Source of the DNA: Candidatus Thorarchaeota archaeon
GTDB lineage: Archaea > Asgardarchaeota > Thorarchaeia > Thorarchaeales > Thorarchaeaceae
Direction of reading: 5' to 3'
Assembly: GCA_046758445.1 (NCBI GenBank)
Contig: JBHIAE010000019.1
Location: 1 to 54,781 of the forward strand
DNA length: 54,781 bases
In this document: positions 8,535 to 54,781 of the stretch, one piece after another
Position numbering within the stretch: position 1 is the first letter of the stretch
Layout: each line of letters begins with the position of its first letter
The notes under the pieces: generated by a model
The model's input: the letters and a program-made list of their open reading frames with translations, nothing else
Told to the model about the DNA's origin: nothing
Databases searched by the model: none
Position numbers and translations under genes: made by a program

Positions 8535-9818
8535 ATGAAGGAGGGTGCAACCTTGGTCGAGGACTCCCGAATTCCCGGTTTCTACAAGCTCGCTAGAGAA
8601 GAGCGTATGAAGAAAATCCAAGAAGTGACTGGCGTACCCGAATCCGAGCTGAAGCCTCTCTTCGACCCCGGGTCAGTTGACATGGAGATCTTGGACCACA
8701 TGATTGAGAATGTCATCGGATCCATGACATTGCCACTTGGCATTGCTACAAACTTCAGAATCAACGATAAGGACTACCTTATTCCAATGGCTCTGGAGGA
8801 GCCATCTGTTGTAGCAGCTGCAAGCAATGCTGCTAGGATGGCAAGAGAACATGGAGGCTTCACAGCAGAAGACACAGGTCCAGTGATGATTGGTCAAATC
8901 CAAGCAATTGAGGTGCCAGAGCCCTTCGACGCGAAAGAGAGAATCATGGAGGCCAAGGATGACCTGATTGAACTTGCCAATGAGCAGGACCCCATCCTTG
9001 TGAGATTCGGGGGAGGGGCAAGAGACCTTCGAGTTAGAGTGATTGACACAAAGGTTGGCCCGATGGTAATCACGGAGTTGATTGTTGACACGAGGGACGC
9101 CATGGGAGCAAACGCCGTTAACACGATGGCTGAGGCCCTCGCACCAAGGATTGAGAAAATCTCCGGTGGCAAAGTACTTCTTCGAATACTCTCGAATCTG
9201 GCGGACCTGAGACTCGTCAATGTCACAGCCACGTTCGACAAGGACCTTCTTGGGGGCGATGAGGTAGTAGACGGAGTAGTTGCGGCGTGGGCTTTTGCAG
9301 AGGCAGACCCATACAGATGTGCAACTCACAACAAGGGAATAATGAATGGAATTGACGCTGTCGTGATTGCCACTGGGAACGACTTCCGGGCTATTGAGGC
9401 CGGTGCTCACAGCTATGCTGCAGTGAACGGTTACAGTTCACTCACCAAATATGAGAAAGAAGAAGGTGGCCATTTGGTTGGAAGTATTGAGATACCGATG
9501 GCGGTGGGGCTCATAGGAGGGGCAACAAAGATTCACCCGGTGGCCCGGGCGTGTGTGCAGATACTGGGGGTTAAAACTGCTACAGAGCTTGGACAGGTCA
9601 TTGCCAGTGTTGGACTAGCTCAGAATCTTGCGGCTCTAAGGGCCTTGGCCTCAGAAGGAATTCAGAAGGGGCATATGTCGCTGCATGCTCGCAACGTTGC
9701 GGCTACAGCCGGAGCAAGAGGCGAGATACTAGAGAAGATTGCCGAGCAGCTTGTAAAAGAGAAGAACATCAAGGTCGAACGAGCGAAGGAACTGCTTGAT
9801 GAGCTTGGATCGAAGTAG
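8535..9818 (+). CDS. hmgA: Hydroxymethylglutaryl-CoA reductase, class II (bacterial/degradative type)
   Basis: ENVIG, EEPSVVAAAS, DAMGAN, ATHNKGIMNG, GNDFRAIEAGAH and GIQKGHMSLH motifs. Confidence 0.95.
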   Translation: MKEGATLVEDSRIPGFYKLAREERMKKIQEVTGVPESELKPLFDPGSVDMEILDHMIENVIGSMTLPLGIATNFRINDKDYLIPMALEEPSVVAAASNAARMAREHGGFTAEDTGPVMIGQIQAIEVPEPFDAKERIMEAKDDLIELANEQDPILVRFGGGARDLRVRVIDTKVGPMVITELIVDTRDAMGANAVNTMAEALAPRIEKISGGKVLLRILSNLADLRLVNVTATFDKDLLGGDEVVDGVVAAWAFAEADPYRCATHNKGIMNGIDAVVIATGNDFRAIEAGAHSYAAVNGYSSLTKYEKEEGGHLVGSIEIPMAVGLIGGATKIHPVARACVQILGVKTATELGQVIASVGLAQNLAALRALASEGIQKGHMSLHARNVAATAGARGEILEKIAEQLVKEKNIKVERAKELLDELGSK

Positions 9819-10013
9819 CGAGAGACAATCACATCTGCAATGTGATCACGCAACTCCGGATTCTTATAGAGCTTCTAGCATAGATGATTCATGAATTGTG
9901 TTGCATTCATCTATCAGAACAACATATTTGAGTGACACAAATACTCGTTACGCATCCCGCACGGGAACTGTAGAGTACACTCCATTTGAGTCACCACAAG
10001 GGTCGAGATAGCT

Positions 10014-10751
10014 ATGGAAGACGAGTGTGCACAATGGGAACGACTTGCCGGCGAGTTTGTAGAAAACGAGAAATTCAATCAAGCAGGCCATCAGTATAAG
10101 CAGGCTGCCGCGTGTCATCTCGACCGGGTAATTGAGATGACAAGAAAGGCCGCCGAGTACTATCACATGTACGCCGAGGAGAGAGTCGGAGCTGGAGATC
10201 ATCGGGGCTCGGCTACAGCGTATTTTGAGGCCGCATCACAGTACAGACAGGTCAACGAATATGATACTGCCCTGACGCTATTTGAGCATGCGGCGGAGCA
10301 CGCTCTCAAAGAAGACCTGATTGAGACCGCAGCACAGGCCTATCTTTGGGCTGCGTTCTCGTGTCATAAATTGGGCAATAAAGAGTACTTTCTGACTTGC
10401 GCAGAGAACATGGGAAATCTCTATGACAAGGCAGCCGAGAAAGCTGTCGAAGAGGGAAAGGCTCAGACAGCCGTGATTGACCTCTCCCTTGCGGCCATGG
10501 GCTTTGCGACGATTGAGAAGGTGGCAGAAGCCAAGGATAGAATAGAGAAAGCCAGAAGAGCTGTAGACAAGACCCGTGGAGAGTGGCTAGAGACCCTAGT
10601 ATCTTATGTTGAGGCTCTCGCAGAAAACAGACTTGAAGATGCTGAAGATCATTTCAAGGCATTCAAGGGTCAGGATACAATTCAAGAGCTCATGAGTGCC
10701 TGTTTGGACATTCGTGAAGAAACCGAGAAAGCGCGCAGGAAGGGAAGATAG
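10014..10751 (+). CDS. All-alpha TPR-like protein resembling alpha/gamma-SNAP (NSF attachment protein)
   Basis: Repeating A..Y..AA helical hairpins (AGHQYKQAAACH, SATAYFEAASQY, AAQAYLWAAFSC) and a C-terminal helical bundle; 245 aa. Confidence 0.6.
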   Translation: MEDECAQWERLAGEFVENEKFNQAGHQYKQAAACHLDRVIEMTRKAAEYYHMYAEERVGAGDHRGSATAYFEAASQYRQVNEYDTALTLFEHAAEHALKEDLIETAAQAYLWAAFSCHKLGNKEYFLTCAENMGNLYDKAAEKAVEEGKAQTAVIDLSLAAMGFATIEKVAEAKDRIEKARRAVDKTRGEWLETLVSYVEALAENRLEDAEDHFKAFKGQDTIQELMSACLDIREETEKARRKGR

Positions 10752-10754
10752 AGC

Positions 10755-12005
10755 CTAACCAACCCGAACCATCGATGTCTGCGTTGCCTCTTCTCCCTCT
10801 TTAGCACCCTCAGCACGAACGGTAACAAGCTCGTCACCTAATGACACTCCCTTCACGTAGAGCTGAAACCTTATTCGTTCCATTGGCCCAATGAACTCGA
10901 TTATCTTCTCCATGTTTCCAAGAGATAGTTCTAGGCCATCTGAGAGATCCACTGTCACGCGGATATTGTCTGCTGGACCGTCACCCTCGTTGAAGATTGT
11001 GACGTCAAAGATGGTCTCGTCTCCGATTCCGCTTGATATGCGCTCTGGCGAGAGTTCCATCTTTAGGTCAGACGGAGGTCGAGCAATTCGGAAGTCGACT
11101 ACGTTGCTCATCTTGTTCACCAGTACGCTCTCACCTTCGAGTGTGAGACTGAAGGGACCTACAGTTCCGTCCCCACTGAGAACGGGCATCAGCTCTAAGA
11201 GCCATGAGTCTTCTTTGTCGAGTCTAGACTCAATCTCTGGCTCCTTTGTGAACTTGAGACTCTTGGAAAGAGAATAACGATAGTCCGAAACTCTCACGGG
11301 AACAGGGCATTTGTATCTTAGCTCGAACTCGATTGGAGTCTTTGCCTGCAACTCATCCTTTGCTTCACCTGCCCACTCTATCACGACATCCGTATCGCGT
11401 GCAATCTTCACAGACTCCGTTAGAAATGAGAACAGCCCTTCTTCCGCCGTCCTAGGTTTTGCAGATGAGATGGCCTTGTTCAGCACCTTGGCTGCAACGA
11501 CTCCGCCCTCACACAGAATGTTGACACTGAGGCGAGCAAGGTCAAGCATGGGAACCTTCTCCATAGAAATGTCTGCGATGCGTTTGTCGACTTTTCTGAT
11601 CACGTTGACACCTGTATCGAAGTTTCGAGCTGCAAGGTAGGCAAGGATCCCGAGTGAGGCAAACCTAGTTGACTCCTTTGTCTTCTTGACACGAAAGAGA
11701 TGGTCAGATGCCTCGGAATACAGACCCCCACCTTCATCAAATCTCCTGTCCACAAGAAGCACATCCGCAGCCAGTATCTTCATGTTGGCGGCCCTTTCAT
11801 GGTCTTCCCTCTCGAGCGCGCAGAAAGCAGCCTCGCGGTAGTACTTCACTGCGAAGTCTACCTCCCCGGCCTCTAGGAAGAGGTTTGCTGCCTTTTCGTA
11901 CTCTTGACTAGCATAGTCGGGGTAGTCTTCCTCTAGCTCGCGCAAAGCTCTGGCTATGTGTTTCTTGGCCTTTTTGACCGGGTCTTTTTTCAAGAATCGT
12001 GACAT
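10755..12005 (-). CDS. SNAP-like TPR solenoid fused to two C-terminal Ig-like (CARDB/BatD-like) beta-sandwich domains
   Basis: N-terminal ASQEYEKAANLF...AVKYYREAAFC...AANMKILAADV; C-terminal beta-rich repeats including VTIFNEGDGPADNIRVTVDLSDGL. No signal peptide. Confidence 0.6.
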   Translation of the reverse strand: MSRFLKKDPVKKAKKHIARALRELEEDYPDYASQEYEKAANLFLEAGEVDFAVKYYREAAFCALEREDHERAANMKILAADVLLVDRRFDEGGGLYSEASDHLFRVKKTKESTRFASLGILAYLAARNFDTGVNVIRKVDKRIADISMEKVPMLDLARLSVNILCEGGVVAAKVLNKAISSAKPRTAEEGLFSFLTESVKIARDTDVVIEWAGEAKDELQAKTPIEFELRYKCPVPVRVSDYRYSLSKSLKFTKEPEIESRLDKEDSWLLELMPVLSGDGTVGPFSLTLEGESVLVNKMSNVVDFRIARPPSDLKMELSPERISSGIGDETIFDVTIFNEGDGPADNIRVTVDLSDGLELSLGNMEKIIEFIGPMERIRFQLYVKGVSLGDELVTVRAEGAKEGEEATQTSMVRVG

Positions 12006-15640: not shown

Positions 15641-16696
15641 TCACCCCTTCTTCTCCCGCTGGGTCATTATGAGCACTCTAAAACCTAAGATTGCCAAAAT
15701 GACACCAACCACCACCAACGCTCCGCCGAGAAGCAGGTTTTCTGTTACATCGGCCAGCCCCCCGGTATAAGCGAGCTGACCGCCCACTGTGGCAAAGACT
15801 ATCCCGAGAAGGCCAAGAATCGTCCACATCATGCGTTGTGCCTTAGTAATGGGAATCTCACCAAGTACTACCTTGCCTGTGTGGCCATCCAGTGCGGCTT
15901 TGTAAAGGTCGCCCTCAAACTTGTATCGTATAAGTGAGAAAGGCGCCTGAAGATATGTTGTCCCTCGCACCTGGGTGTCAGTCCTGCAATCGAACAACTC
16001 AGTCAAGGCACTGTTAGCCTGCGACCTATGCCGATCAGCAACACGTCCATGTACTGTCTTCTCGTACTCCTCCTGACCAATCTCAGCATTGAGAATTGTC
16101 AGCTCGACCTCATCTCCGCGTTCAGTGGATCTGAGGTCCTTTATCTTCTCAAAGTTGTAGGGCTCTGTCTTCTTTAGATCAACCTTCTCTAGGTACTCTT
16201 CAAGACCATAGAACCTAGCACCCTTCCGGGCCAGTAGTCGCTCGTCCGTATCAGTATGGATCTCATCCTGAACTGGGACGTATCCAGTTTCGTGATCTGT
16301 GTAGGTTTCGGTTCGTGTGTTACCGTCCGAATCCCGTACAGTTCTTGTCTTTTGCACGGGAACCTGTACTGTCTTGTAGCCTTTGTACCATGAGTCAGCC
16401 TTCACTTTCGCAGTCCACACTGGCACGAACAATATCTTGTTCTCTACGACTTCTGCCTGCTGGGGGAGAGACTTGTTCATGCCTTTGTTCTTGTCCAAGA
16501 ATGTGCGGAAGCCCTGCAAACGCTCTTCAACATCCACGCCCGACTCCATAAGATGGTCGCCAATGGCCTTTCCTTCAATCGTGGTCGTGCTTCCACAATA
16601 AGTGCACGTGATCACGACATCGTCAGGACCGGTCTTGACATTGCCGTTGCAGACTGGACACTTGAAGACGTCCACTGCTTGTGCTTCAGAACTCAT
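15641..16696 (-). CDS. Zinc-ribbon membrane protein (YdjG-like), paralog 2
   Basis: CPVC...CTYCG, FVPVW, DSDGNTRTETY loop, DGHTGKV and two C-terminal TMs. Start moved to ATG 16696 after GGAGAG. Confidence 0.7.
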   Translation of the reverse strand: MSSEAQAVDVFKCPVCNGNVKTGPDDVVITCTYCGSTTTIEGKAIGDHLMESGVDVEERLQGFRTFLDKNKGMNKSLPQQAEVVENKILFVPVWTAKVKADSWYKGYKTVQVPVQKTRTVRDSDGNTRTETYTDHETGYVPVQDEIHTDTDERLLARKGARFYGLEEYLEKVDLKKTEPYNFEKIKDLRSTERGDEVELTILNAEIGQEEYEKTVHGRVADRHRSQANSALTELFDCRTDTQVRGTTYLQAPFSLIRYKFEGDLYKAALDGHTGKVVLGEIPITKAQRMMWTILGLLGIVFATVGGQLAYTGGLADVTENLLLGGALVVVGVILAILGFRVLIMTQREKKG

Positions 16697-16847
16697 TCTC
16701 AACTCTCCATAGAGTTTCTGCGGGGAAGGTCGTTCTGGAGGCATTTAAGACTTCGTCACACATCTAGGGCGCTTCTAAGGTGCTCAGGATAAATCGACAG
16801 TCTGAATGCCGATCCTGTCTGATCTTCTCAAGAATCTGTGAGAGGAC

Positions 16848-17993
16848 CTACCTTCTGATATCTTGACGAAGTCTGGAAGCCGAGAACTCGTCAACACGAG
16901 CCTTGGCCTCTTCACGGGCAGCCTGGTGTTTCTCGAGGAATTCCATTACGCGCGGTGCTAGGATCTGCTTGCACTCTCCACAGAGTATCTCGCCGCCGCG
17001 GCACTGCCGCTCAATATCCTCCAGCTCCTTGTCGTCAGGCATGAACATGAATTCGTAGTACTTGAAAACACTACAAATGTCAGGATTGGCTCCCAGTTTC
17101 CGTTGCTCCTCAACAGTAGCCCTTCCCCCAGTGAATGCGTTCATGACCTTCTTCTTCGCCATCTTGATGGTATCCGTCGTAAAGATTGTAGACATCGGGT
17201 CGGAAGCCGACATCTTGCCACCCTCTTTGAGACCTGGAACAAACCTGTTCTGGATAGAAGCTGGCTTGTAGTATCCTACTCTTTCAGCAACATCGCGGGT
17301 CACTCGCCAGTAGGGATCCTGGTCAATCGCACATGGAATAATGCAGGGAGTCTTCTTGCCATATATCCACGAATGAATGAAGGCAGGAACTGCCTGAATC
17401 GCAGGGAACCAAATGCCACCGATGTTCATACTATTGTCAAAGCCAAACACTGCCCTCGCCGCTGAAAATGTGACCTTCTTGGCAACTTGGACAGCTATTT
17501 CGTACAATAGATCAATGTGCTCTATGTCTTGAATAATGAAAGTATTCTCTGGCTCAAATCCAAGAGCTAGGAGGTCGAGCGTGTTCTCGTAAGTGAATTT
17601 CCTTACTTTGTCGAGGTCGAGTTGAGGTTCGAACACGAACTTCTCATCGTTCGTCATTTGGAAGTAGAGACGTGTATCGAACCGATCCTGCATCCACTTA
17701 GTGAATATCCAAGTTGGAAGATGGCCAATGTGAGTATGACCACTCGGACCACGCCCGGTATAGAGGGTGAACTTGTTCTTCTTCTCGTATTCGTTGAGAA
17801 TCCATTTGAGGTCACGATGGGAGAAGAAGTAGTCACGTTCAAGCATCACATGCTTCTCTTGCGTAATCTTGTAGATTCGTTGCTTGAGCTCAGGCGTGAT
17901 GCGCTCTGTTCCAAACTCCTTGATTAGGCGGTCATAGTCGATCTTTCCTCTGACCTCCCAGGGAGTCACGACCATTTCTTCTTCGTCAGCCAT
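16848..17993 (-). CDS. trpS: Tryptophan--tRNA ligase (archaeal/eukaryotic type)
   Basis: VTPWEV, YTGRGPSG..HIGH, AIDQDPYWR, KMSAS and CGECK. Start moved to ATG 17993. Confidence 0.97.
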   Translation of the reverse strand: MADEEEMVVTPWEVRGKIDYDRLIKEFGTERITPELKQRIYKITQEKHVMLERDYFFSHRDLKWILNEYEKKNKFTLYTGRGPSGHTHIGHLPTWIFTKWMQDRFDTRLYFQMTNDEKFVFEPQLDLDKVRKFTYENTLDLLALGFEPENTFIIQDIEHIDLLYEIAVQVAKKVTFSAARAVFGFDNSMNIGGIWFPAIQAVPAFIHSWIYGKKTPCIIPCAIDQDPYWRVTRDVAERVGYYKPASIQNRFVPGLKEGGKMSASDPMSTIFTTDTIKMAKKKVMNAFTGGRATVEEQRKLGANPDICSVFKYYEFMFMPDDKELEDIERQCRGGEILCGECKQILAPRVMEFLEKHQAAREEAKARVDEFSASRLRQDIRR

Positions 17994-18170
17994 TCTTGGA
18001 TACCTCTGGATTCTGGATCTGCACCAATGGGACTTCTGAGGCCATGGGTTCGCAATTAAGGGTGATGGTTCCAATTCTCATAACAGCCAGTCGTTGTTTC
18101 GGTACATAGAGTTAGTCTAAAAAGGCAGGGTTCTAGATGTCTGTAGAAGGAGTTCCATGAGGAGATTATC

Positions 18171-18428
18171 GTGGACATTGATGAGTATGAGTTCGAGGAA
18201 GAGGTCACTCATTCAATTCTCGCAGAGCGACTCGAGAGGATGGCTGAGGAGATCAAAAGGGGCGATAAGCTAGAGCTCCCAATGCCTAGCCGCAGAGAGG
18301 GAGTCCTCGAGCTTGCGCTTGGCGAGCCCATTGAAATGGGCATTGAGGTAAGAATGAGGAAGAGCACCATTCGATTGAACGTTTCGCTCGGGTGGGAACG
18401 TATAGAAGTAGGGGGAGATGACGGTTGA
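18171..18428 (+). CDS. Amphi-Trp domain protein
   Basis: 85 aa; acidic N-terminus, amphipathic helix LAERLERMAEEI, beta strands and a terminal L.W motif. Confidence 0.7.
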   Translation: MDIDEYEFEEEVTHSILAERLERMAEEIKRGDKLELPMPSRREGVLELALGEPIEMGIEVRMRKSTIRLNVSLGWERIEVGGDDG

Positions 18429-19048
18429 GTGGAGAGGTCCTAGACAGGTCCCAGATAATCGACGGGCTCGCTCACATTGCTGAGCATCTCGTTAATATCG
18501 CTGCAGTGGTTGACACTGAAATCTGCAGAACTATTGATGGCGAATGCGAGTCTGATTGGGACTCCGCACGCGATTCAGTGGCAGAGGAGTTCAAGGCGAT
18601 TAGTCCTCATTATAGAAAGGTCATGAGCTTCCCCAGCAACGAGCTAGGAATCACAGCACTTGAGGCGATGTCTTCACTTGTCAAGATAAGAGGTGCTTTC
18701 CGACGAATCGTACTTATGATAGACATGTTGAGGGACACGGATTTTCAACCTGTATACATGGACTCCCTTGGTTCAATATCCAAGAAGGTCCATGAAGCGG
18801 TTGTCGCATTACGGACAATGGTCTCCTCGGATGGAGAGAATCCAGAAGCATTAACAGAAGGCCGAATGGCCATATCAAAGCTCGAGCGACAGGTAGATGA
18901 AGAGAATATCATAATCAGCCGTCAGATAGAAGTGACAGAAGGAGGCGACTCTCCATTCGTTAGCTCTGTTATGAGAAAGATAGTCGGAGAACTCGAGAAT
19001 ATCACGGACTACCTCCGGGATCTTGCAGAGGTCATTGAAGGGCTTTGA
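18425..19048 (+). CDS. PhoU/DUF47-like helical-bundle protein
   Basis: ISKLERQVDE and ELENITDYLRDLAEVI are typical PhoU/DUF47 repeat ends; overlaps the upstream stop. Confidence 0.6.
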   Translation: MSGEVLDRSQIIDGLAHIAEHLVNIAAVVDTEICRTIDGECESDWDSARDSVAEEFKAISPHYRKVMSFPSNELGITALEAMSSLVKIRGAFRRIVLMIDMLRDTDFQPVYMDSLGSISKKVHEAVVALRTMVSSDGENPEALTEGRMAISKLERQVDEENIIISRQIEVTEGGDSPFVSSVMRKIVGELENITDYLRDLAEVIEGL

Positions 19049-42039: not shown

Positions 42040-43965
42040 GTGAATGACTCCCGTTCATCCATCCTAAAGGATCTTGATGCCCTCGAAGACCAAACGGATA
42101 GCATAGAGGACAATAGAATAGCCAACAAGAGGACAGGGTCATTCTATACTCCTTGGGACCTAGCCTATGACATCACTTCGAGAAGTCTTGCGGCAGCCCT
42201 CTTCGACTCGACAGGAATTGACGTGCAGCGAAGATCATACGCCGATCTCGACGTTCATTTGCGCGACAGTGCTCTTGGCATTCTGAGAAGCATGCGGATT
42301 CTTGACCCTGCTGTGGGAGAAGGAGTCTTCCTGCTTGCATCAGCAGAGTGGCTTCTCAGAACTCGGAAGGCATTCGGAGACAGATCTGGCGAAGATGCGC
42401 TAAGGCAGGACATCTTGAGCAACAATCTCTATGGAGTAGACCTAGTGGAAAATGCAGTTGACCAGTGCAAGAACGCTCTGAAGAGATGGGCTAGGTGCGA
42501 CGACTCCCAGGAACTGGCACCCTCAAACATTCGTGAGGGAAACAGTCTCGTCGGGTGGGTGAGTCACAGAAGTATGACCAAGGTGGAGAATGATGCCCTG
42601 CCGAATGAAGCTCTCTGGGAATCTCTCGGCTCCAAGTATAGTCAACTGCGGAAGTCGACTCTGACCTCCATGAAGCCATTTCACTGGGAAGTCGAATTCC
42701 CCGAAGTGATAACAGGCGACGAGCAAGGCTTTGACATCATCATCGGGAACCCTCCTTATGGGAATATCCTCTCAGACGTCGAGAGACACCTGATATCGAA
42801 GACCCACAATTTCGACATTAGCACAGGTAGGACTGGAACTTGGAACAGCGCATCTCTGTTCATTGCCAGATCGCGAGCTCTTCTCAAAGAAGGAGGACAT
42901 CTGGGCTTCTTGGTGCCCAACAGCGTTCTCAGAACAAAACAATTCAGCAAGGTAAGACAGCTCCTATTGACTGAGATGCAACTGTGGCTGGTGATTGACG
43001 AAGCGAGTCCATTTGATGACGTCACTCTTGAGATGGTCAGCCTGTTTTGTAGAGCAGGACACAGCCCCGGCGATTATGAGGTGCAAGTGCTTTCAAGACG
43101 GCCTGGAATTGATTGGGAGGGGCAAGTGCCTGGGACAATCCTTGAATCGAGCAACATCTTCCCTCTCTATTACGACTCGACTCTGGCCATAGTATTGAAG
43201 AGAGCCACAAAGGGCTGGGTGACGGCGAGTAGAGGAAGGGACATTCCAAAGGCTCACGTGAACAAGACAAGAAGCCAAGAGTTCAAGGTACCTTACGCAA
43301 CAAGCGGTCGTAGTGTCAAGCGTTATAGACTTGACCCGAGATACCTGATCTATTCAGATATGGCCTTCAGAGAGGATCAGGGACTGCTTGATTCGTACGA
43401 GAACATGTTCTTAATCTCCACCAAGAACTATCCCTATCCCAGGTGCGTAATGAAACCAAGAGGAGTCATACATGGCGGCGGCGCAGTACGCATCAAGGCG
43501 CTGAAGCAGGGTGTTGATTATGAGGCACTAGGATTGATCCTCAACTCTAGATTGATTCGTTATCTATGCGTGAAGTACCTGACAAACTACTCACAGCTTA
43601 CCACATGCTTGAACACTGGAATAATGGAGGAGTTACCTCTTGTGTTCCCCACAGATACGATGCCTTTCTCCACTATATTCAGAGCTATGGGAATGCTTCA
43701 TGAGAACCCTGATGATGACTCGAATGCAGGTTTGGCGTCCTATCTGGACAGAGTCGCCGACACTCTGGTGTACGAACTCTTCCTTCTGAACCGTGACTCC
43801 TTCTTCAACAAGATCGAAGCAAGACTTGAGAAGCTGGGCGATTCATGGAGTCCTCAAGAAGTGTGTCGGTTGTTGAAAGGAAGTGAAGTTTCTAATCTGA
43901 TGGATGAGATACTGAAGACTCCCATTGTCGAGGTGGTTGAGAACTCCCACAGAATGTCACCGTAG
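42040..43965 (+). CDS. N6-adenine DNA methyltransferase (TaqI/Eco57I-like, gamma order) with target-recognition domain; no adjacent REase
   Basis: GSFYTP, ILDPAVGEGVFL, LYGVD, FHWEVEFPEV and FDIIIGNPPY. Confidence 0.9.
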   Translation: MNDSRSSILKDLDALEDQTDSIEDNRIANKRTGSFYTPWDLAYDITSRSLAAALFDSTGIDVQRRSYADLDVHLRDSALGILRSMRILDPAVGEGVFLLASAEWLLRTRKAFGDRSGEDALRQDILSNNLYGVDLVENAVDQCKNALKRWARCDDSQELAPSNIREGNSLVGWVSHRSMTKVENDALPNEALWESLGSKYSQLRKSTLTSMKPFHWEVEFPEVITGDEQGFDIIIGNPPYGNILSDVERHLISKTHNFDISTGRTGTWNSASLFIARSRALLKEGGHLGFLVPNSVLRTKQFSKVRQLLLTEMQLWLVIDEASPFDDVTLEMVSLFCRAGHSPGDYEVQVLSRRPGIDWEGQVPGTILESSNIFPLYYDSTLAIVLKRATKGWVTASRGRDIPKAHVNKTRSQEFKVPYATSGRSVKRYRLDPRYLIYSDMAFREDQGLLDSYENMFLISTKNYPYPRCVMKPRGVIHGGGAVRIKALKQGVDYEALGLILNSRLIRYLCVKYLTNYSQLTTCLNTGIMEELPLVFPTDTMPFSTIFRAMGMLHENPDDDSNAGLASYLDRVADTLVYELFLLNRDSFFNKIEARLEKLGDSWSPQEVCRLLKGSEVSNLMDEILKTPIVEVVENSHRMSP

Positions 43966-45576: not shown

Positions 45577-46095
45577 ATGCAAGCCATGGCTGTTCCGTGC
45601 AAGATCAGAGAGTTCAGGAAGGAGGACATCGACGCAGTCATGGCTATCAACCAAGCTGCTCTTCCCGAGAACTATCCGAGCTCCTTCTTCCTGGGTCTTC
45701 ATAGCCATGCTCCCAAAGCATTCTTGGTTGCCGAAGTAGACTCCACGGTCATTGGGTACATAATGTGTAGAATGGAGAGAGGGATATCCAGCTTCAGGAG
45801 ACCATACCCTGTTAAGAAGGGCCATATAGTTTCGGTGGCCGTTGTTCGTGATCACCGGCGAAAAGGCATAGGCACAGAGCTCATAGAACGAGGCATTGCA
45901 GGGATGGTTGAGTATGGGGCCACTGAGTTCTACCTTGAGGTGCGAAAGAGCAACAAGCCAGCAGTTACAATCTATGAAGTGTTGGGATTCGAAATAGGTA
46001 GAGTACTTAGAGGATACTACAGAGATGGAGAAGACGCCTACCTCATGACCAGAAAGAGGAACCATGATCAAGAGGATGATTCATCCGATGGCTGA
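45577..46095 (+). CDS. Ard1/RimI-type N-terminal acetyltransferase
   Basis: N...LPENY, GYIMCR, GHIVSVAV...RRKGIG, LEVRKSN and YY.DGEDAYLM. Start moved to ATG 45577. Confidence 0.92.
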   Translation: MQAMAVPCKIREFRKEDIDAVMAINQAALPENYPSSFFLGLHSHAPKAFLVAEVDSTVIGYIMCRMERGISSFRRPYPVKKGHIVSVAVVRDHRRKGIGTELIERGIAGMVEYGATEFYLEVRKSNKPAVTIYEVLGFEIGRVLRGYYRDGEDAYLMTRKRNHDQEDDSSDG

Positions 46096-46999
46096 TACTA
46101 TCACTGTACCGCTAGTGCCTGAGTGCTCTGCCTGCATGATTGATAGCCTAAAGACACTCATTCCATTGCTAACGTCTGATGAGCGTGAACAGTATGAGCT
46201 GTACTCCTTGGCGTTCAGTCGACTTGCCGATGGCTTCTCGAAGCGGCTTGAGCCAATAGAAATCTCAGTCATGCTATACAGAGAGCTCTATGACCGGATG
46301 GGAGTGAGAGACCCCTACTCGACGTTGAAGCAAGAGAGTATAGAAGCCGCACAGAAGGTGATTCCCTCTATCGAGAAGACAATATCGAAACTCGAAGGCT
46401 CTGATAGACTTCGAGCTGCATTGTCTGCTGCAATCGCCGGCAATGTCATTGACTTCAATACGGCGGGTCATGACCCCAATCTCGATGGCCTTCAAGCTAC
46501 TTTTGAGGAGATCCTGCAGGCTGGATTCACGATTGACCATTCGTCAAATCTCTTCCAGTCACTAACTTCGCGGTCGGGGCATTTGCTATTTCTTGGTGAC
46601 AACGCTGGGGAAACACTCTTTGACATTCCTCTTCTTCGCTTGGCAACGGAGTTTGGATGGAAGGTCACCTATGTTGTGAAAGGACGACCAATGGTGAATG
46701 ATGCTGTCGAGGAAGACGTGAGAGGAAGCGAGATTGAAGACCTTGCAACCATCGCCGACACTGGTGCGTGGGCGCATGGTGTTCCAAAGGAATGGGTCAG
46801 TGAGGACTTCCTTGAGTTGGTGGGCGATAGTGATATGGTCATCTCGAAAGGACAGGCCAACATCGAAACGTTTCCAGAGATTCAGCAAGAATATGATGTC
46901 GAAACTTACTATCTTCTAAGAGGCAAATGTGCGCACATATCAGCAGCCATTGCAGTACAGAAGGGCGACAACGTTGTGCTACGTCGGCCGTCTCCTTAG
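46088..46999 (+). CDS. DUF89 / ARMT1-like damage-control metal-dependent phosphatase
   Basis: ECxxC, DPY..LK, GNVIDF, DNAGE..FD, NDA and ISKGQAN.E. Confidence 0.9.
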   Translation: MADTITVPLVPECSACMIDSLKTLIPLLTSDEREQYELYSLAFSRLADGFSKRLEPIEISVMLYRELYDRMGVRDPYSTLKQESIEAAQKVIPSIEKTISKLEGSDRLRAALSAAIAGNVIDFNTAGHDPNLDGLQATFEEILQAGFTIDHSSNLFQSLTSRSGHLLFLGDNAGETLFDIPLLRLATEFGWKVTYVVKGRPMVNDAVEEDVRGSEIEDLATIADTGAWAHGVPKEWVSEDFLELVGDSDMVISKGQANIETFPEIQQEYDVETYYLLRGKCAHISAAIAVQKGDNVVLRRPSP

Positions 47000-51149: not shown

Positions 51150-52424
51150 TCACTTTACAGGGTCAGGCACTTCAGGAGCCAATTGGTCAAGGTCGAACGT
51201 GATTGTGTTTGTGTCCTCAGTGATTGTCATTTCCCTCGTTATTATCCAGTCGTCTAGCCTAAGCTCGGCAACTAAGTACAAGGGCCCTGACTGTAGCTCA
51301 CTCTGGAGGTCAGTGGTATTCAGGTCGAACTCGACCCTGTTCATCTGCACAATTGGATACCTGATGGTGGGATAGTCAAATGATGACTTTGGGGTTTCTC
51401 CAGTGTGCGGATTTACATAGTCATAGTGTAGCTTGAAAGCAAGTTGACCTGCCTCCCCGTCCCACTTGGACATCTCCTGTCCGGGCTGTCTTATCTTGAT
51501 TGTGTCATTGAAGCTGTACTCCACCTCTTCTCCATATGTCACATCTTCATTGAAGGAGGCCCAGTCCGCACCGTCATAATCGCTAGCTTCCTCTGTGAAC
51601 ACATCCAGAGTTCCACTGTCGTCGACCCACTCCTGTGTCCAACCCTCTTGAGCCAAGACCTGAATCTTGTCGAACCTCTCCACTCCCACTCGTACGTCGC
51701 TGATGGACTGCTTCTTGGGGGATGCACCCCACAGGTTCATGAGGTTGTGGGAAGCAATCACCTGCATGAAGAGGCCGGACAAGCTGGAGTTGGAGATGAT
51801 GTGGTCGTAGGTTATCTGAGAGGACAGACCATAGGACACCACTCCTCCGCCCCGGGCATCGGCCTGAAGTGATATTGGGTTCGCCATGGAGGATGCTGAA
51901 CCTTCGAAGCCGGCGTAGTCTATGAACTTCCTGCCCTTCTGTCGGAGCTCGTCAAGGCTTGATGCCTGTATGCCCTCGAAGGGCTCTAGGCTGCTATGAA
52001 AGTTAAAGAACTCGTAACCGTGTTCTCGTTTGCTGCCGAATCGGAGATTAATTCCTTGAACTATCTGCAGACCGAGGATGTGAACGATGCCGTCTCTGAG
52101 TGTGCCCTGCCTCACCCCCCAGCCAATATCCTTGCTAGAGAACAACCATTGTCGAAGGGCAAGGACCGACTCTGTTACGTAATACGGCGGTGTTGGTTCT
52201 GGTGGTATGAAGGAGGGTCTTTGGTATCCAGGACTACGGAGTTTGGTTAGCCGGTCTAACTTCGAAACGTCTTGTGTAGTCGGTGTGGGTACAATCCTCA
52301 ATTCAGATACGACCTCAGACCAACCATGCTCACGGATGATTCCGTCCACTGCCGCGTCAAGCTCCTCGTGCCTGCGAAGTCGGATAAGTCTGGCCAGTGG
52401 TCGCTCCTCAATCATGCCCATCAC
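51150..52424 (-). CDS. Hypothetical protein with acidic beta-rich region (possibly the N-terminal part of a longer ORF)
   Basis: 424-aa ORF ending PDPVK-TGA with the next ATG immediately after, in frame. Confidence 0.65.
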   Translation of the reverse strand: MMGMIEERPLARLIRLRRHEELDAAVDGIIREHGWSEVVSELRIVPTPTTQDVSKLDRLTKLRSPGYQRPSFIPPEPTPPYYVTESVLALRQWLFSSKDIGWGVRQGTLRDGIVHILGLQIVQGINLRFGSKREHGYEFFNFHSSLEPFEGIQASSLDELRQKGRKFIDYAGFEGSASSMANPISLQADARGGGVVSYGLSSQITYDHIISNSSLSGLFMQVIASHNLMNLWGASPKKQSISDVRVGVERFDKIQVLAQEGWTQEWVDDSGTLDVFTEEASDYDGADWASFNEDVTYGEEVEYSFNDTIKIRQPGQEMSKWDGEAGQLAFKLHYDYVNPHTGETPKSSFDYPTIRYPIVQMNRVEFDLNTTDLQSELQSGPLYLVAELRLDDWIITREMTITEDTNTITFDLDQLAPEVPDPVK

Positions 52425-52484
52425 AACCTAGACAGATTCCTCGATACAAGACTGTTTCTACGCTTATTCGAAAAGAAACACGGG

Positions 52485-52883
52485 TCAAAACGTCAGCCCC
52501 TTGTACGTCTTCCTAAGGTACGCCTCCATCTTGTGCGGTTCCAGCGGGACCTCAGAAACAGGAATGACCTCCACCGCATACTCGAAACTAGGGTTGTTCT
52601 TCTTGTACTTGACCTTCTTCTCCTCGGCTATGGTGTCGGAGGGCTCTGACTCAATCTCGTAGATCATCCCATAGGTGATGTCCACGATATCAGCCACTCC
52701 CTTCCCAATCTTGACCTCTGTGGCGCAGTGTCTTCCATTGTCCACGATTATCTTGGTGACGGCAGCCTTGATGAGGAAGTGTTCCATTGTCTCACTGCCG
52801 GAGTTGTGTCGTACTGAGTTCAGGACCTCCTTCCAAGAACCGAGTTGAATCTTGTTCGCCTTCAGACACCACCTGATCTCCAT
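52485..52883 (-). CDS. Small PD-(D/E)xK-fold nuclease-like protein
   Basis: ET.EH..IK helix, then TEV..G.GVADIVD and YEIES (E...D...ExE variant). Start moved to ATG 52883, 10 bp after the upstream stop. Confidence 0.65.
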   Translation of the reverse strand: MEIRWCLKANKIQLGSWKEVLNSVRHNSGSETMEHFLIKAAVTKIIVDNGRHCATEVKIGKGVADIVDITYGMIYEIESEPSDTIAEEKKVKYKKNNPSFEYAVEVIPVSEVPLEPHKMEAYLRKTYKGLTF

Positions 52884-52893
52884 GACTTCGTCC

Positions 52894-53868
52894 TTAGTCA
52901 GTTGCACCAATCTTGAACTCCTCCAGAGTTGTCTGCTTGTTGCTTGTGTGACACTGGACAGCACAGTTCCGACATCCGACCCAGCATGCATCCTTCTCGT
53001 ACAGGACACCAGCTGTCCAGTTGTGGTTGTGGGCGCTGAATCTGTGACGCTTGGTCGTGGGAGCCTTGAAGTACGCCCAGTCTGCCAGATACTTCCAGTT
53101 CGGATTGTACTCCTTCTTGCCCCTCATCACACGAGCAGGGTTCTCTAGGACCAAGGGCGACCTCTCTGATGTTGCACCTAGCTCCCCGCTCATCAGTTGA
53201 TCCTGTCTGCTCCACAGACGAAGACCCTCATGGGTCGTGTCATCGAAGTGGAATGACACAGGACGCCACACGAAGTGACCCCCAATCTGGAGGTAGGACC
53301 TACACATGTTGACTCTCGGTCTGAGAAAGTCGTCGCTGTCGAAGCCCGATACTGTGGCGTGGACCATCGCGCCGTGGTCGACAAGTTCCCTCATCTGTGA
53401 CTTGGTGGGCCTCTTCCAAAGCCTTGAGAACACCACAGGAGTCACGCCAAACTTCCGTGATAGATCACAGACTTGGACCACCTTGTCCCATGCAAGACCG
53501 GGCTCACTCATCACACCGATTCGGACCCAACCGATTCGCTCAGCGACCTTCATCAACTGAGGTCTTAGGACATCAGGGTTGAATAGCATCTCCACAGGAG
53601 TTGTGAAGTCCGCGCTGAGCTTCTTGCACCCAAAGCCCACATAGCAGCCCCAAGGACAGTTCTTGAATGAGTAGTAGGGACACCCGTACACGACGTCTAT
53701 CGTGTTCTTCCTGTTCTTGGAGTTGCCACGTACCTCGATGTCGCGGGGAATGAAGTGACCGGTCTCAGGGTCAATCCACTTGGCCGTCCTACGCTTGGCC
53801 TCGGACAGGAGCACCGTGCCATCCAGACACATCTGGACCACTTGCTGCAGGTCGGACTCGACTGTCAC
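52894..53868 (-). CDS. Non-canonical SPL-like radical SAM protein B with C-terminal 4-Cys cluster and PIP-box-like tail
   Basis: DVVYGCPYYSFKNCPWGCY (Cx7Cx3C), VRIGVMSEP, HATVSGFD, CWVGCRNCAVQC and QTTLEEF. GTG 53868 overlaps the upstream TGA (GTGA). Confidence 0.7.
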   Translation of the reverse strand: MTVESDLQQVVQMCLDGTVLLSEAKRRTAKWIDPETGHFIPRDIEVRGNSKNRKNTIDVVYGCPYYSFKNCPWGCYVGFGCKKLSADFTTPVEMLFNPDVLRPQLMKVAERIGWVRIGVMSEPGLAWDKVVQVCDLSRKFGVTPVVFSRLWKRPTKSQMRELVDHGAMVHATVSGFDSDDFLRPRVNMCRSYLQIGGHFVWRPVSFHFDDTTHEGLRLWSRQDQLMSGELGATSERSPLVLENPARVMRGKKEYNPNWKYLADWAYFKAPTTKRHRFSAHNHNWTAGVLYEKDACWVGCRNCAVQCHTSNKQTTLEEFKIGATD

Positions 53869-54781
53869 TCCCACACCCTCGGATGACTCATGCACTTGTT
53901 GAGGCACTCGTAGCACTTGCTGTAGCACCCGCGACTTCCGTATCCCACATCGTGGGCACTCCGCCAACGGTTGCTGATTCGCCCGTCAGTGTTGGAGATG
54001 GTAGGACCGTATCGGGACAGGTCTAGGTGTCTGTTGACTGGACTCTTGCCCCGAATCCTAAGGGGCTGTTGGAATGAGTAGTCCAGTGCCATCAGACCAT
54101 CCTGGGACTCCCACAGGTCAGACTCCTCATCACCGAACCATGCGGTTATCACTCTGCCAACGATTCGTCCGCCAAGCTCCTCGTATCTCTCAAGGTTCCT
54201 CAGAATCCTGTCAATGTGCAGGGGTGGATCTAGAGCGCTCACCGAGCCATGTACGATAGCCTCTGCCCTGACCAGCCTTTCCAAAATGAGCAAATGCGGC
54301 TCGATGGCAAACCTAGTGAGGAGAACGGTGGTCTTATCGAAGAGGTCGCAGAACTCGGCTGTGTCCGCAGCCAGTGACCAGTCGCAGGACGGTTCACCGT
54401 TCACGCCATTCCTCACAATGTCCGACTTGATGCGCTCTAGATCCCTGCTTAGTGCCTGCTCGTTCAGGCGATTGCTCACTGGTATCCAGTACATCATATG
54501 GTAGCGGGCCATGCTCTCAGAGAGGTAACAGTGGCCGTAGCATCCATGTCCCTGATACACAGCAGCGAACGGGCAACCACGGACTGTGTCCAGAAGAAAG
54601 CCAATGTCCGTGATGTTCCGCCTTCCATAGTCCTTCCCCCTGGGAGTCACGTTGGTCTTGTTGTTCCCAAAGAGATGAATTTCACGGGACTGAAAAGGCA
54701 TCCACGGCCTGCTCTCTCGAATGGTGATGGTCTTGGGGTATGCCAGTGTGGACTGTTGATAACCACACTGCAAGAGGCTGG
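53865..54781 (-). CDS. Non-canonical SPL-like radical SAM protein A (frame open to the right edge, start may lie outside)
   Basis: DTVRGCPFAAVYQGHGCYGHCY (Cx10Cx3C), VRNGVNGEP, HGSVSALD and CYSKCYECLNKC; colinear with paralog B. Confidence 0.7.
   Translation of the reverse strand, partial: SLLQCGYQQSTLAYPKTITIRESRPWMPFQSREIHLFGNNKTNVTPRGKDYGRRNITDIGFLLDTVRGCPFAAVYQGHGCYGHCYLSESMARYHMMYWIPVSNRLNEQALSRDLERIKSDIVRNGVNGEPSCDWSLAADTAEFCDLFDKTTVLLTRFAIEPHLLILERLVRAEAIVHGSVSALDPPLHIDRILRNLERYEELGGRIVGRVITAWFGDEESDLWESQDGLMALDYSFQQPLRIRGKSPVNRHLDLSRYGPTISNTDGRISNRWRSAHDVGYGSRGCYSKCYECLNKCMSHPRVWE

Follow-up and report, generated by a model that had tools for sequence, protein, structure and literature searches.

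What does a tandem pair of unusual radical S-adenosylmethionine (SAM) enzymes do at the edge of an archaeal accessory island? The pair, genes A and B, lies at one end of contig JBHIAE010000019.1 (assembly GCA_046758445.1) of a Candidatus Thorarchaeota archaeon. The window that we analysed, 54,781 nucleotides, is this whole contig (C19) of a 3.25-Mb Thorarchaeota-type metagenome-assembled genome. A preliminary description had read A and B, together with a small nuclease gene, C, that follows B, as a possibly viral module that modifies and restricts DNA; a further gene, D, lies behind C. We tentatively favour a different reading, to which we give somewhat less than an even chance: A and B would be a radical SAM pair that is tethered to the sliding clamp PCNA and acts on DNA within an accessory, conflict-related module. 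Our analysis shows the paralogy, fold, conserved motifs, copy number and distribution of A and B, and that C is optional; the docking of B on PCNA is a prediction.

Genes A and B are paralogues with a predicted radical SAM fold

The two genes and their cysteine motifs are as follows.

53865-54779, minus strand: gene A, an open reading frame (ORF) for a radical-SAM-fold protein, the A-type paralogue; it runs past the window end, with 304 of about 308 codons inside
54528-54575, minus strand: cysteine loop of A, C69-x10-C80-x3-C84, which follows strand beta-1 directly and presumably holds the SAM-binding [4Fe-4S] cluster
53892-53927, minus strand: C-terminal Cx3Cx2Cx3C of A (C285-C296), taken to be a putative auxiliary Fe-S site
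52894-53868, minus strand: gene B, an ORF for a radical-SAM-fold protein, the B-type paralogue
53644-53682, minus strand: cysteine loop of B, C63-x7-C71-x3-C75, invariant in 10 B-type sequences
52951-52986, minus strand: C-terminal Cx3Cx2Cx3C of B (C295-C306), invariant in B-type sequences

Four codons (MSTT) are missing from A, and its start was deduced from contig C53, whose end overlaps this contig by 55 identical bp; the overlap also reveals a TATA-like TATATAAG upstream of A. The GTG start of B sits on the TGA stop of A, forming a GTGA overlap. When comparing the two proteins by BLASTP, we found 25% identity over 275 residues (E 5e-19), which puts the paralogy well beyond chance and agrees with the end-to-end alignment reported previously. 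Both proteins retain every family-invariant residue, so neither looks like a dead copy.

The cysteine patterns given in the preliminary description, Cx10Cx3C in A, Cx7Cx3C in B and a terminal Cx3Cx2Cx3C in both, were confirmed, and 12 close homologues keep every one of the seven cysteines. Across a wider set of family members, the three loop columns are cysteine in 65/65, 60/65 and 65/65 sequences, and the four columns of the C-terminal motif in 35/65, 49/65, 46/65 and 50/65, so that this second motif is kept in roughly half to three-quarters of the family. Neither A nor B has the Cx3Cx2C spacing by which the radical SAM superfamily is recognized. The family itself contains a series of spacings: two members (P0077 and P0124) have the canonical Cx3Cx2C, a few are intermediate and most have Cx6-11Cx3C, and the loop is always followed by Y/F-A. 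The canonical spacing in a few members argues that the loop of A and B is a variant of the Cx3Cx2C motif and not its absence. A conserved G-x-x-G-(D/E)-P-S is found after beta-2, at the expected place of the SAM-binding glycine-rich motif. Here, G125 is invariant, position 128 is G or S in 64/65 members, position 129 is D or E in 63/65 and P130 is present in 62/65, all following strand 121-124 of the structural model of A. Judged by its position, G-(D/E)-P may be the counterpart of the 'GGE' SAM-binding motif. The simplest reading of the C-terminal Cx3Cx2Cx3C is an auxiliary Fe-S site; that of B shows a weak likeness to the ferredoxin-type Fe-S subunits HybA/HmcB.

The AlphaFold2 model of A, built on the family alignment from a HMMER search, reached a predicted local distance difference test (pLDDT) score of 89.7 and a predicted template modelling (pTM) score of 0.88. 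In the model, beta-1 comprises residues 66-68, with C69 directly after it, at the place where radical SAM enzymes hold their cluster. Foldseek returned HydE and spore photoproduct lyase (SPL) as the best matches in the PDB (E 2e-4). With VIA-align, the model matched SPL with Z 12.8 (231-239 residues aligned, root-mean-square deviation ~4), viperin-like enzymes with Z 12.4 and PFL-activating enzyme with Z 11.5, and each of the top 50 VIA matches was a radical SAM enzyme (50/50, Z 9.6-12.8). Within the ESM Atlas, the model matched unnamed, mostly viral (Uroviricota) clusters at a template modelling score (TM) of 0.76-0.77, one of which is a 748-residue fusion labelled methyltransferase; clusters labelled 'SPL family radical SAM' came next at TM ~0.6 (0.62). 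As modelled, the fold of A is a partial (beta/alpha)6 TIM-barrel radical SAM core. The earlier assignment to radical SAM enzymes with a non-canonical loop is thereby upheld, with SPL as the closest barrel.

At the level of sequence, the family stands apart. An exhaustive HMMER search with A as the query yielded at least 115 representative clusters, many of them on phage-like contigs, and a Pfam scan of 65 clusters found one that touches Radical_SAM (E 4e-4) and one that touches DUF5131 (E 9e-3). The models PF04055 (at E up to 10), PF20903 and PF07505 gave no match to A or B, PF07505 gave no match in this genome at E 1e-10, and the A/B family profile found nothing among PDB sequences. Homologues of B number 13, all from Thorarchaeota where named, and the B-type sequences form one clade in a quick tree. 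We conclude that A and B represent an unnamed branch of radical SAM enzymes, close to DUF5131 and SPL, that has an insertion in the cluster loop.

The C-terminal tail of B is predicted to dock on PCNA

Behind its last cysteine, B carries a motif that resembles a PCNA-interacting protein (PIP) box.

52915-52935, minus strand: PIP-like box of B, Q312-T-T-L315-E-E-F318, five residues past the last cysteine, with a QxxLxxF pattern

The PIP consensus is Q-x-x-[LIM]-x-x-[FY]-[FY], from which B has Q312, L315 and F318, with K at position 8. Q-x-x-L-x-x-F is found at the same place in five B-type orthologues, which share only 47-54% overall identity; a sixth has a V variant, and in the other orthologues the pattern is degraded. 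The genome contains a single PCNA gene, at L047:1501-2259, and we predicted the complex of this PCNA with residues 280-324 of B, using alignments for both partners. The docking reached ipSAE values of 0.85, 0.85 and 0.79, compared with 0.00 for the best control; the mark used for docking was reached by 58/80 solved complexes and by 2/110 mismatched pairs. The runs had at least 87% of their contacts in common, and the partner had a pLDDT of at least 53. The predicted interface brings residues 308-318 and 320-324 of B onto PCNA residues 40, 43-47, 121-128, 226-227 and 243-250, and in the model it corresponds to the canonical PIP site, with its hydrophobic pocket, interdomain connector and C-terminal tail. 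In our search of the literature, no account of a radical SAM enzyme acting as a PCNA client came up.

The A-type proteins end differently, in a conserved tryptophan-rich tail (PRVWE, PRVWGVWE or GGAQW; 53868-53891 in the window, and L002, L003, L020 and L041) that is unlike the PIP-like tail of B. Another Thorarchaeota-family genome has a second, divergent PCNA-like gene (L062:2183-2995, contig C141 of G387) that is 26% identical to the PCNA of this genome. It lies 1.8 kb from a frameshifted A-type gene spanning two contig ends and could be an element-borne clamp.

The A-B pair is multi-copy and resides in a variable chromosomal island

The A-B pair is present three times in this genome, on contigs C19, C67 and C96, with ~87% nucleotide identity and always at contig ends. 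An IS110-type element ends ~20 nt upstream of A on C67 and C96; on C53, which continues C19, an IS110 transposase gene (16864-18000) lies ~1 kb upstream of A. The B copy on C96 (3306-4268) contains an internal TGA and is probably a pseudogene. The A/B family is present in 22/400 Asgard genomes, with 17/85 in the same family, 4/31 in one other family and, at the level of the genus, 3/16 other genomes. Copies across Asgard genomes are often multiple, fragmentary or interrupted by stop codons, and some genomes have a single gene in place of the pair.

The viral origin suggested in the preliminary description gained no support. Synteny with relatives runs through an ARMT1-like gene (46064-46999) and is then lost, so the region from ~47000 to the contig end is a variable island. 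We rejected a viral module as unshown, given the host synteny up to ~47000 and an island in which no viral hallmark genes were seen. By tblastn, neither A nor a phage-like member of the family matched any of 50,697 phage records, and a viral contig collection contained no relative of B. The locus is a variable chromosomal island beside IS110.

On C53, two 621-bp direct repeats that are 86% identical (16193-16811 and 18409-19029; L082:7194-7812 and 9410-10030) flank the IS110-family transposase gene. Related insertion sequence (IS) copies are present on C2, C6 and C86 and at the ends of C67 and C96.

Neighbourhoods of homologues give indirect support for a link to DNA

The surroundings of A/B homologues indirectly support a link to DNA. 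Contig C67 encodes an SPL-family protein (PF20903, E 2.8e-14) and a canonical radical SAM protein whose gene is next to a UDG-superfamily gene, all situated 4-9 kb downstream of the second A-B-D copy (L078:5815-6738, 10153-11166 and 11179-11802). A genome of the same family has a single A-like homologue, P0027, in a neighbourhood (L086:2713-8454) with genes for an AlkZ-like glycosylase, a DUF1028 protein, a BglII-like endonuclease (PF09195, E 6e-31, two genes away) and an AlkD-like glycosylase; there is no methylase among the genes called on its 12.8-kb contig. The copy in a second Asgard family adjoins genes for a Schlafen/AlbA_2 protein and an OLD-type nuclease, and a near outgroup of B has a Dam-type methylase two genes away, its 100-kb scaffold encoding ParB as well. 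Together with the predicted PCNA docking of the B tail, these neighbourhoods make the DNA-linked role proposed in the preliminary description plausible.

A rival reading is a repair enzyme and not a modification enzyme. A and B could be an SPL-like, oxygen-sensitive lyase that is recruited by PCNA and directly reverses a lesion, such as a pyrimidine dimer-type or an alkyl or crosslink lesion, in archaea of anoxic sediments. SPL is the best structural match of A, an SPL-family gene and the radical-SAM-plus-UDG pair are on the contig of one copy, and a homologue is flanked by the AlkZ-like and AlkD-like glycosylases. Many archaeal repair enzymes use PIP boxes, which also fits. Against this speaks the way in which the genes are distributed: patchy even within the genus (3/16 other genomes), in multiple copies that IS elements flank and that are frequently broken. 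A housekeeping repair gene would not be expected to look like this, and relatives are found mainly on phage-like contigs. We therefore regard direct-reversal repair as unlikely, while giving it an appreciable chance.

Gene C is an optional cassette

Gene C and the segment that contains it have the following positions.

52485-52883, minus strand: gene C, an ORF for a small restriction-endonuclease-like protein of 132 aa, optionally inserted between B and D
52461-52950, minus strand: cassette consisting of the last ~56 nt of B, C and a spacer, without a counterpart in the C67 and C96 copies

C starts 10 nt after the TAA stop of B, and the coordinates bear out the three coupled genes, with a GTGA overlap and a 10-bp gap, that were first described. 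The idea that the nuclease is an integral partner failed when its conservation beside homologues was checked. C is absent from the A-B copies on C67 and C96, so that only one of the three copies here has it, and nearly all A/B loci of other genomes lack it. C is thus optional in the module. Homology between the C19 copy and those on C67 and C96 ends at 52950, 56 nt before the B stop, and restarts at 52461, so the segment that differs comprises the tail of B and C. Only four C homologues were found in 5.8 billion proteins, plus one, 45% identical, by tblastn. Locus L012 has the block of B tail and C behind a decayed B of a different lineage, with 83% nucleotide identity over the last 200 nt of B and C. 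At L010, the block is 77.5% identical, and B is cut to a remnant reading ...QTSLEDFTIGSTE-stop immediately before C. Around one C homologue, the ~12.7 kb of DNA that we retrieved contain no A/B gene. A B tail always precedes C, whereas most B genes lack C, and a hitch-hiking or homing-type cassette therefore fits better than an obligate partner. C is not part of the core; it is probably a selfish homing-type cassette or an occasional accessory nuclease.

The fold of C is less clear than that of A. Its model has a pLDDT of 59.5 and an order of helices and strands that is compatible with the alpha-beta-beta-beta-alpha-beta core of restriction endonucleases. With this model, Foldseek found nothing in the PDB at E ≤ 0.001; a wide VIA search gave a best Z of 6.9 and many restriction-endonuclease-like folds (BpuSI, McrC, Hjc, VRR-NUC, Vsr, NucS and Kpn2I), none of them outstanding. 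A C profile found nothing among PDB sequences, and scans of Pfam, PHROGs, NCBIfam and PADLOC gave no usable family. The C homologues share the acidic pattern E...D...E-x-(K/E), in which D68 and E78 are invariant. The third catalytic position is K in two homologues and E in the window copy and two others; glutamate at the lysine position of E-x-K is known in BamHI. A PD-(D/E)xK nuclease, as C had been called, is a plausible candidate, given the acidic pattern and the weakly indicated fold of a low-confidence model.

These observations bear on the restriction-modification (R-M) architecture that had been proposed at the outset, in which A and B install a radical-made base modification and C cuts DNA that is without (or with) it. 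The 10-nt distance between B and C in the window copy agrees with such a system. All close C homologues lie behind a B 3' end or remnant, and the 45%-identical one is 3.4 kb from a B gene. Protection in trans could come from A/B copies at other places in the genome. A different small nuclease, the BglII-like one, is encoded two genes away from a distant member of the family, on a contig whose called genes include no methylase. The nuclease and modification genes of R-M systems are inherited together, which was not what we found for C and A/B: C is lacking in two of the three A-B-D copies here and in almost all A/B loci of other genomes, and one C homologue has no A/B gene in ~12.7 kb around it. 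In addition, the fold of C is in doubt, with a pLDDT of 59.5, nothing matched by Foldseek and a Z of 6.9 at best, its E-x-K lysine is a glutamate in the window copy, and C and the BglII-like protein near P0027 are not detectably related (hhalign). With C not co-inherited, its role as the reader of a modification is weak, and we consider an R-M-like system very unlikely.

Gene D belongs to the conserved core

The genes downstream of C have the same orientation.

51150-52424, minus strand: gene D, third gene of the module, with an N-terminal part common to the D genes on C67 and C96
48965-51149, minus strand: genes E (multi-pass membrane protein) and F, variable cassette genes downstream, co-oriented ORFs that abut or overlap

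Only the first ~165 aa of the window D are common to the D genes on C67 and C96, and the C-terminal half is replaced. For most of its length, the D of the C67 type has a homologue (E 4e-35) in the gene that follows B in L008, which is an unrelated contig from a metagenome. D is kept after B across the copies and in L008, which makes A-B-D the conserved core. The D family has only seven members, from Thorarchaeota where named, and several of them have HEAT-like repeats. Paralogous D-E-F sets without A-B are present on C82 and C66, and the C-terminal half of D differs between copies. Scans of Pfam, PHROGs, NCBIfam and PADLOC gave no usable family for genes D-G, and an ESM Atlas look-up of D was uninformative.

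In another reading, A and B would be maturases that modify the product of D, E or F, or a metabolite, in the manner of radical SAM peptide or cofactor maturases, with the PIP-like tail being incidental. D always follows B and has a conserved N-terminal domain across copies, E encodes a membrane protein, D, E and F vary like cassette genes, and TauD and amidohydrolase fusions occur in other family members. The conserved PIP-like box and its predicted docking, the DNA-related neighbourhoods elsewhere and the single-gene homologues that come without D, E and F argue in the other direction, and we give the maturase only a small chance.

Within the stretch of the window that is syntenic host DNA, at 42040-43965, lies a gene for an Eco57I/MmeI-type (type IIG-like) restriction-modification methylase, which relatives keep at 58% identity.

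A tentative model for the A-B-D module

In the model that we prefer, a PCNA-tethered radical SAM pair acting on DNA, A and B would each bind a [4Fe-4S] cluster on the expanded Cx7-10Cx3C loop after beta-1 and may hold a second Fe-S cluster on their C-terminal Cx3Cx2Cx3C. The PIP-like box of B would tether the enzyme to the sliding clamp, as the predicted docking suggests, so that 5'-deoxyadenosyl radical chemistry would be aimed at DNA at sites of replication or repair. Together with the HEAT-repeat protein D, A and B make up an accessory module specific to Thorarchaeota, which is present in several copies, flanked by IS110 elements and in many cases decayed. Its most likely action would be to install or remove a base modification or adduct amid the conflict between host and mobile elements; SAM cleavage, a DNA substrate and a role in conflict are all presumed in this scheme.

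Several points weigh against the model. Neither A nor B has a match in Pfam, PHROGs, NCBIfam or PADLOC, and with their non-canonical cysteine spacing, cluster binding and SAM cleavage can only be inferred. The PIP-like box of B has no second aromatic residue and is only five residues from the last cysteine; it is absent or imperfect in several B orthologues and likewise in all A-type and single-gene forms. PIP and PCNA are a textbook pair, and the successful docking may therefore reflect mere likeness to solved complexes and not binding. The neighbourhoods vary between genomes, so no single partner backs a role on DNA, and the genes downstream, the membrane protein gene E and the variable D and F, give no pointer to DNA. 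The TauD or amidohydrolase domains fused to other family members would fit small-molecule chemistry equally well.

A more specific version of the PCNA-tethered pair is that A and B form a heteromeric enzyme (with D) that writes or erases a non-methyl base modification on newly made DNA, with nucleases such as C, or the BglII-like protein elsewhere, as its occasional readers. We consider this version improbable; if true, replication-coupled radical modification of DNA would mark self and non-self by a new class of chemistry.

Overall, our analysis describes a family without a Pfam name and with an expanded cysteine loop that is spread over phage-like contigs and accessory islands of Asgard archaea. 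If B does ride the clamp, the family would lead directly to new DNA chemistry, be it modification or repair, in those archaea that are most closely related to eukaryotes and share with them the clamp and the logic of the PIP box. The natural series from Cx3Cx2C to Cx6-11Cx3C could also help to understand how a SAM-binding cluster tolerates loop insertions.

Comparison with known systems

Few radical SAM enzymes act on DNA. The classic case is SPL (SplB; PDB 4fhc/4fhf; PF20903), a radical SAM barrel that acts directly on DNA and is the best structural match of A over nearly the whole protein. SPL has the Cx3Cx2C motif, whereas A and B have Cx7-10Cx3C. A and B also add the C-terminal four-cysteine motif, the tandem arrangement of paralogues and the PIP-like tail on B, and neither has a sequence match to PF20903 or PF04055. 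The SPL-family gene on C67, compared as a single sequence with the A/B family profile by hhalign, showed no relation.

Viperins and viperin-like enzymes tie with SPL as structural matches, with Z 11.5-12.4 and an alignment that extends to the C-terminus of the A model. Viperins act on nucleotides and function in conflict or immunity. They differ from A and B in having the canonical Cx3Cx2C, no second cluster and a nucleotide triphosphate as the substrate, and they share no sequence similarity with A and B.

DUF5131, the phage Gp37/Gp68 family (PF07505), is a radical SAM subgroup in SFLD/RadicalSAM.org whose function is unknown. Like the A/B family, it is phage-associated. We read one DUF5131 protein from another Asgard genome as an example and found GC-x7-C-x2-C-YA...MGDP, compared with GC-x6-11-C-x3-C-YA...GDPS in the A/B family. 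The hhalign comparison of the A/B family profile with this example gave a probability of 87.6% and E 3.5e-6 over 69 columns, from the cysteine loop to GDPS. The likeness covers only ~70 residues, and the PF07505 model has no match to A or B. The last two loop cysteines are separated by three residues in A and B and by two in DUF5131, and the example has no C-terminal cysteine cluster. In RadicalSAM.org, DUF5131 and SPL are neighbouring parts of one megacluster (PMC9477430).

The PIP-like box relates B to archaeal PCNA clients such as Fen1, the RFC large subunit and family B polymerase: Q-x-x-L-x-x-F is located at the extreme C-terminus and is predicted to occupy the same pocket. B differs from these clients in missing the second aromatic residue of the consensus and in being a predicted radical SAM enzyme. 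To what is known of its family, the locus adds this putative clamp tether and the A-B-D core.

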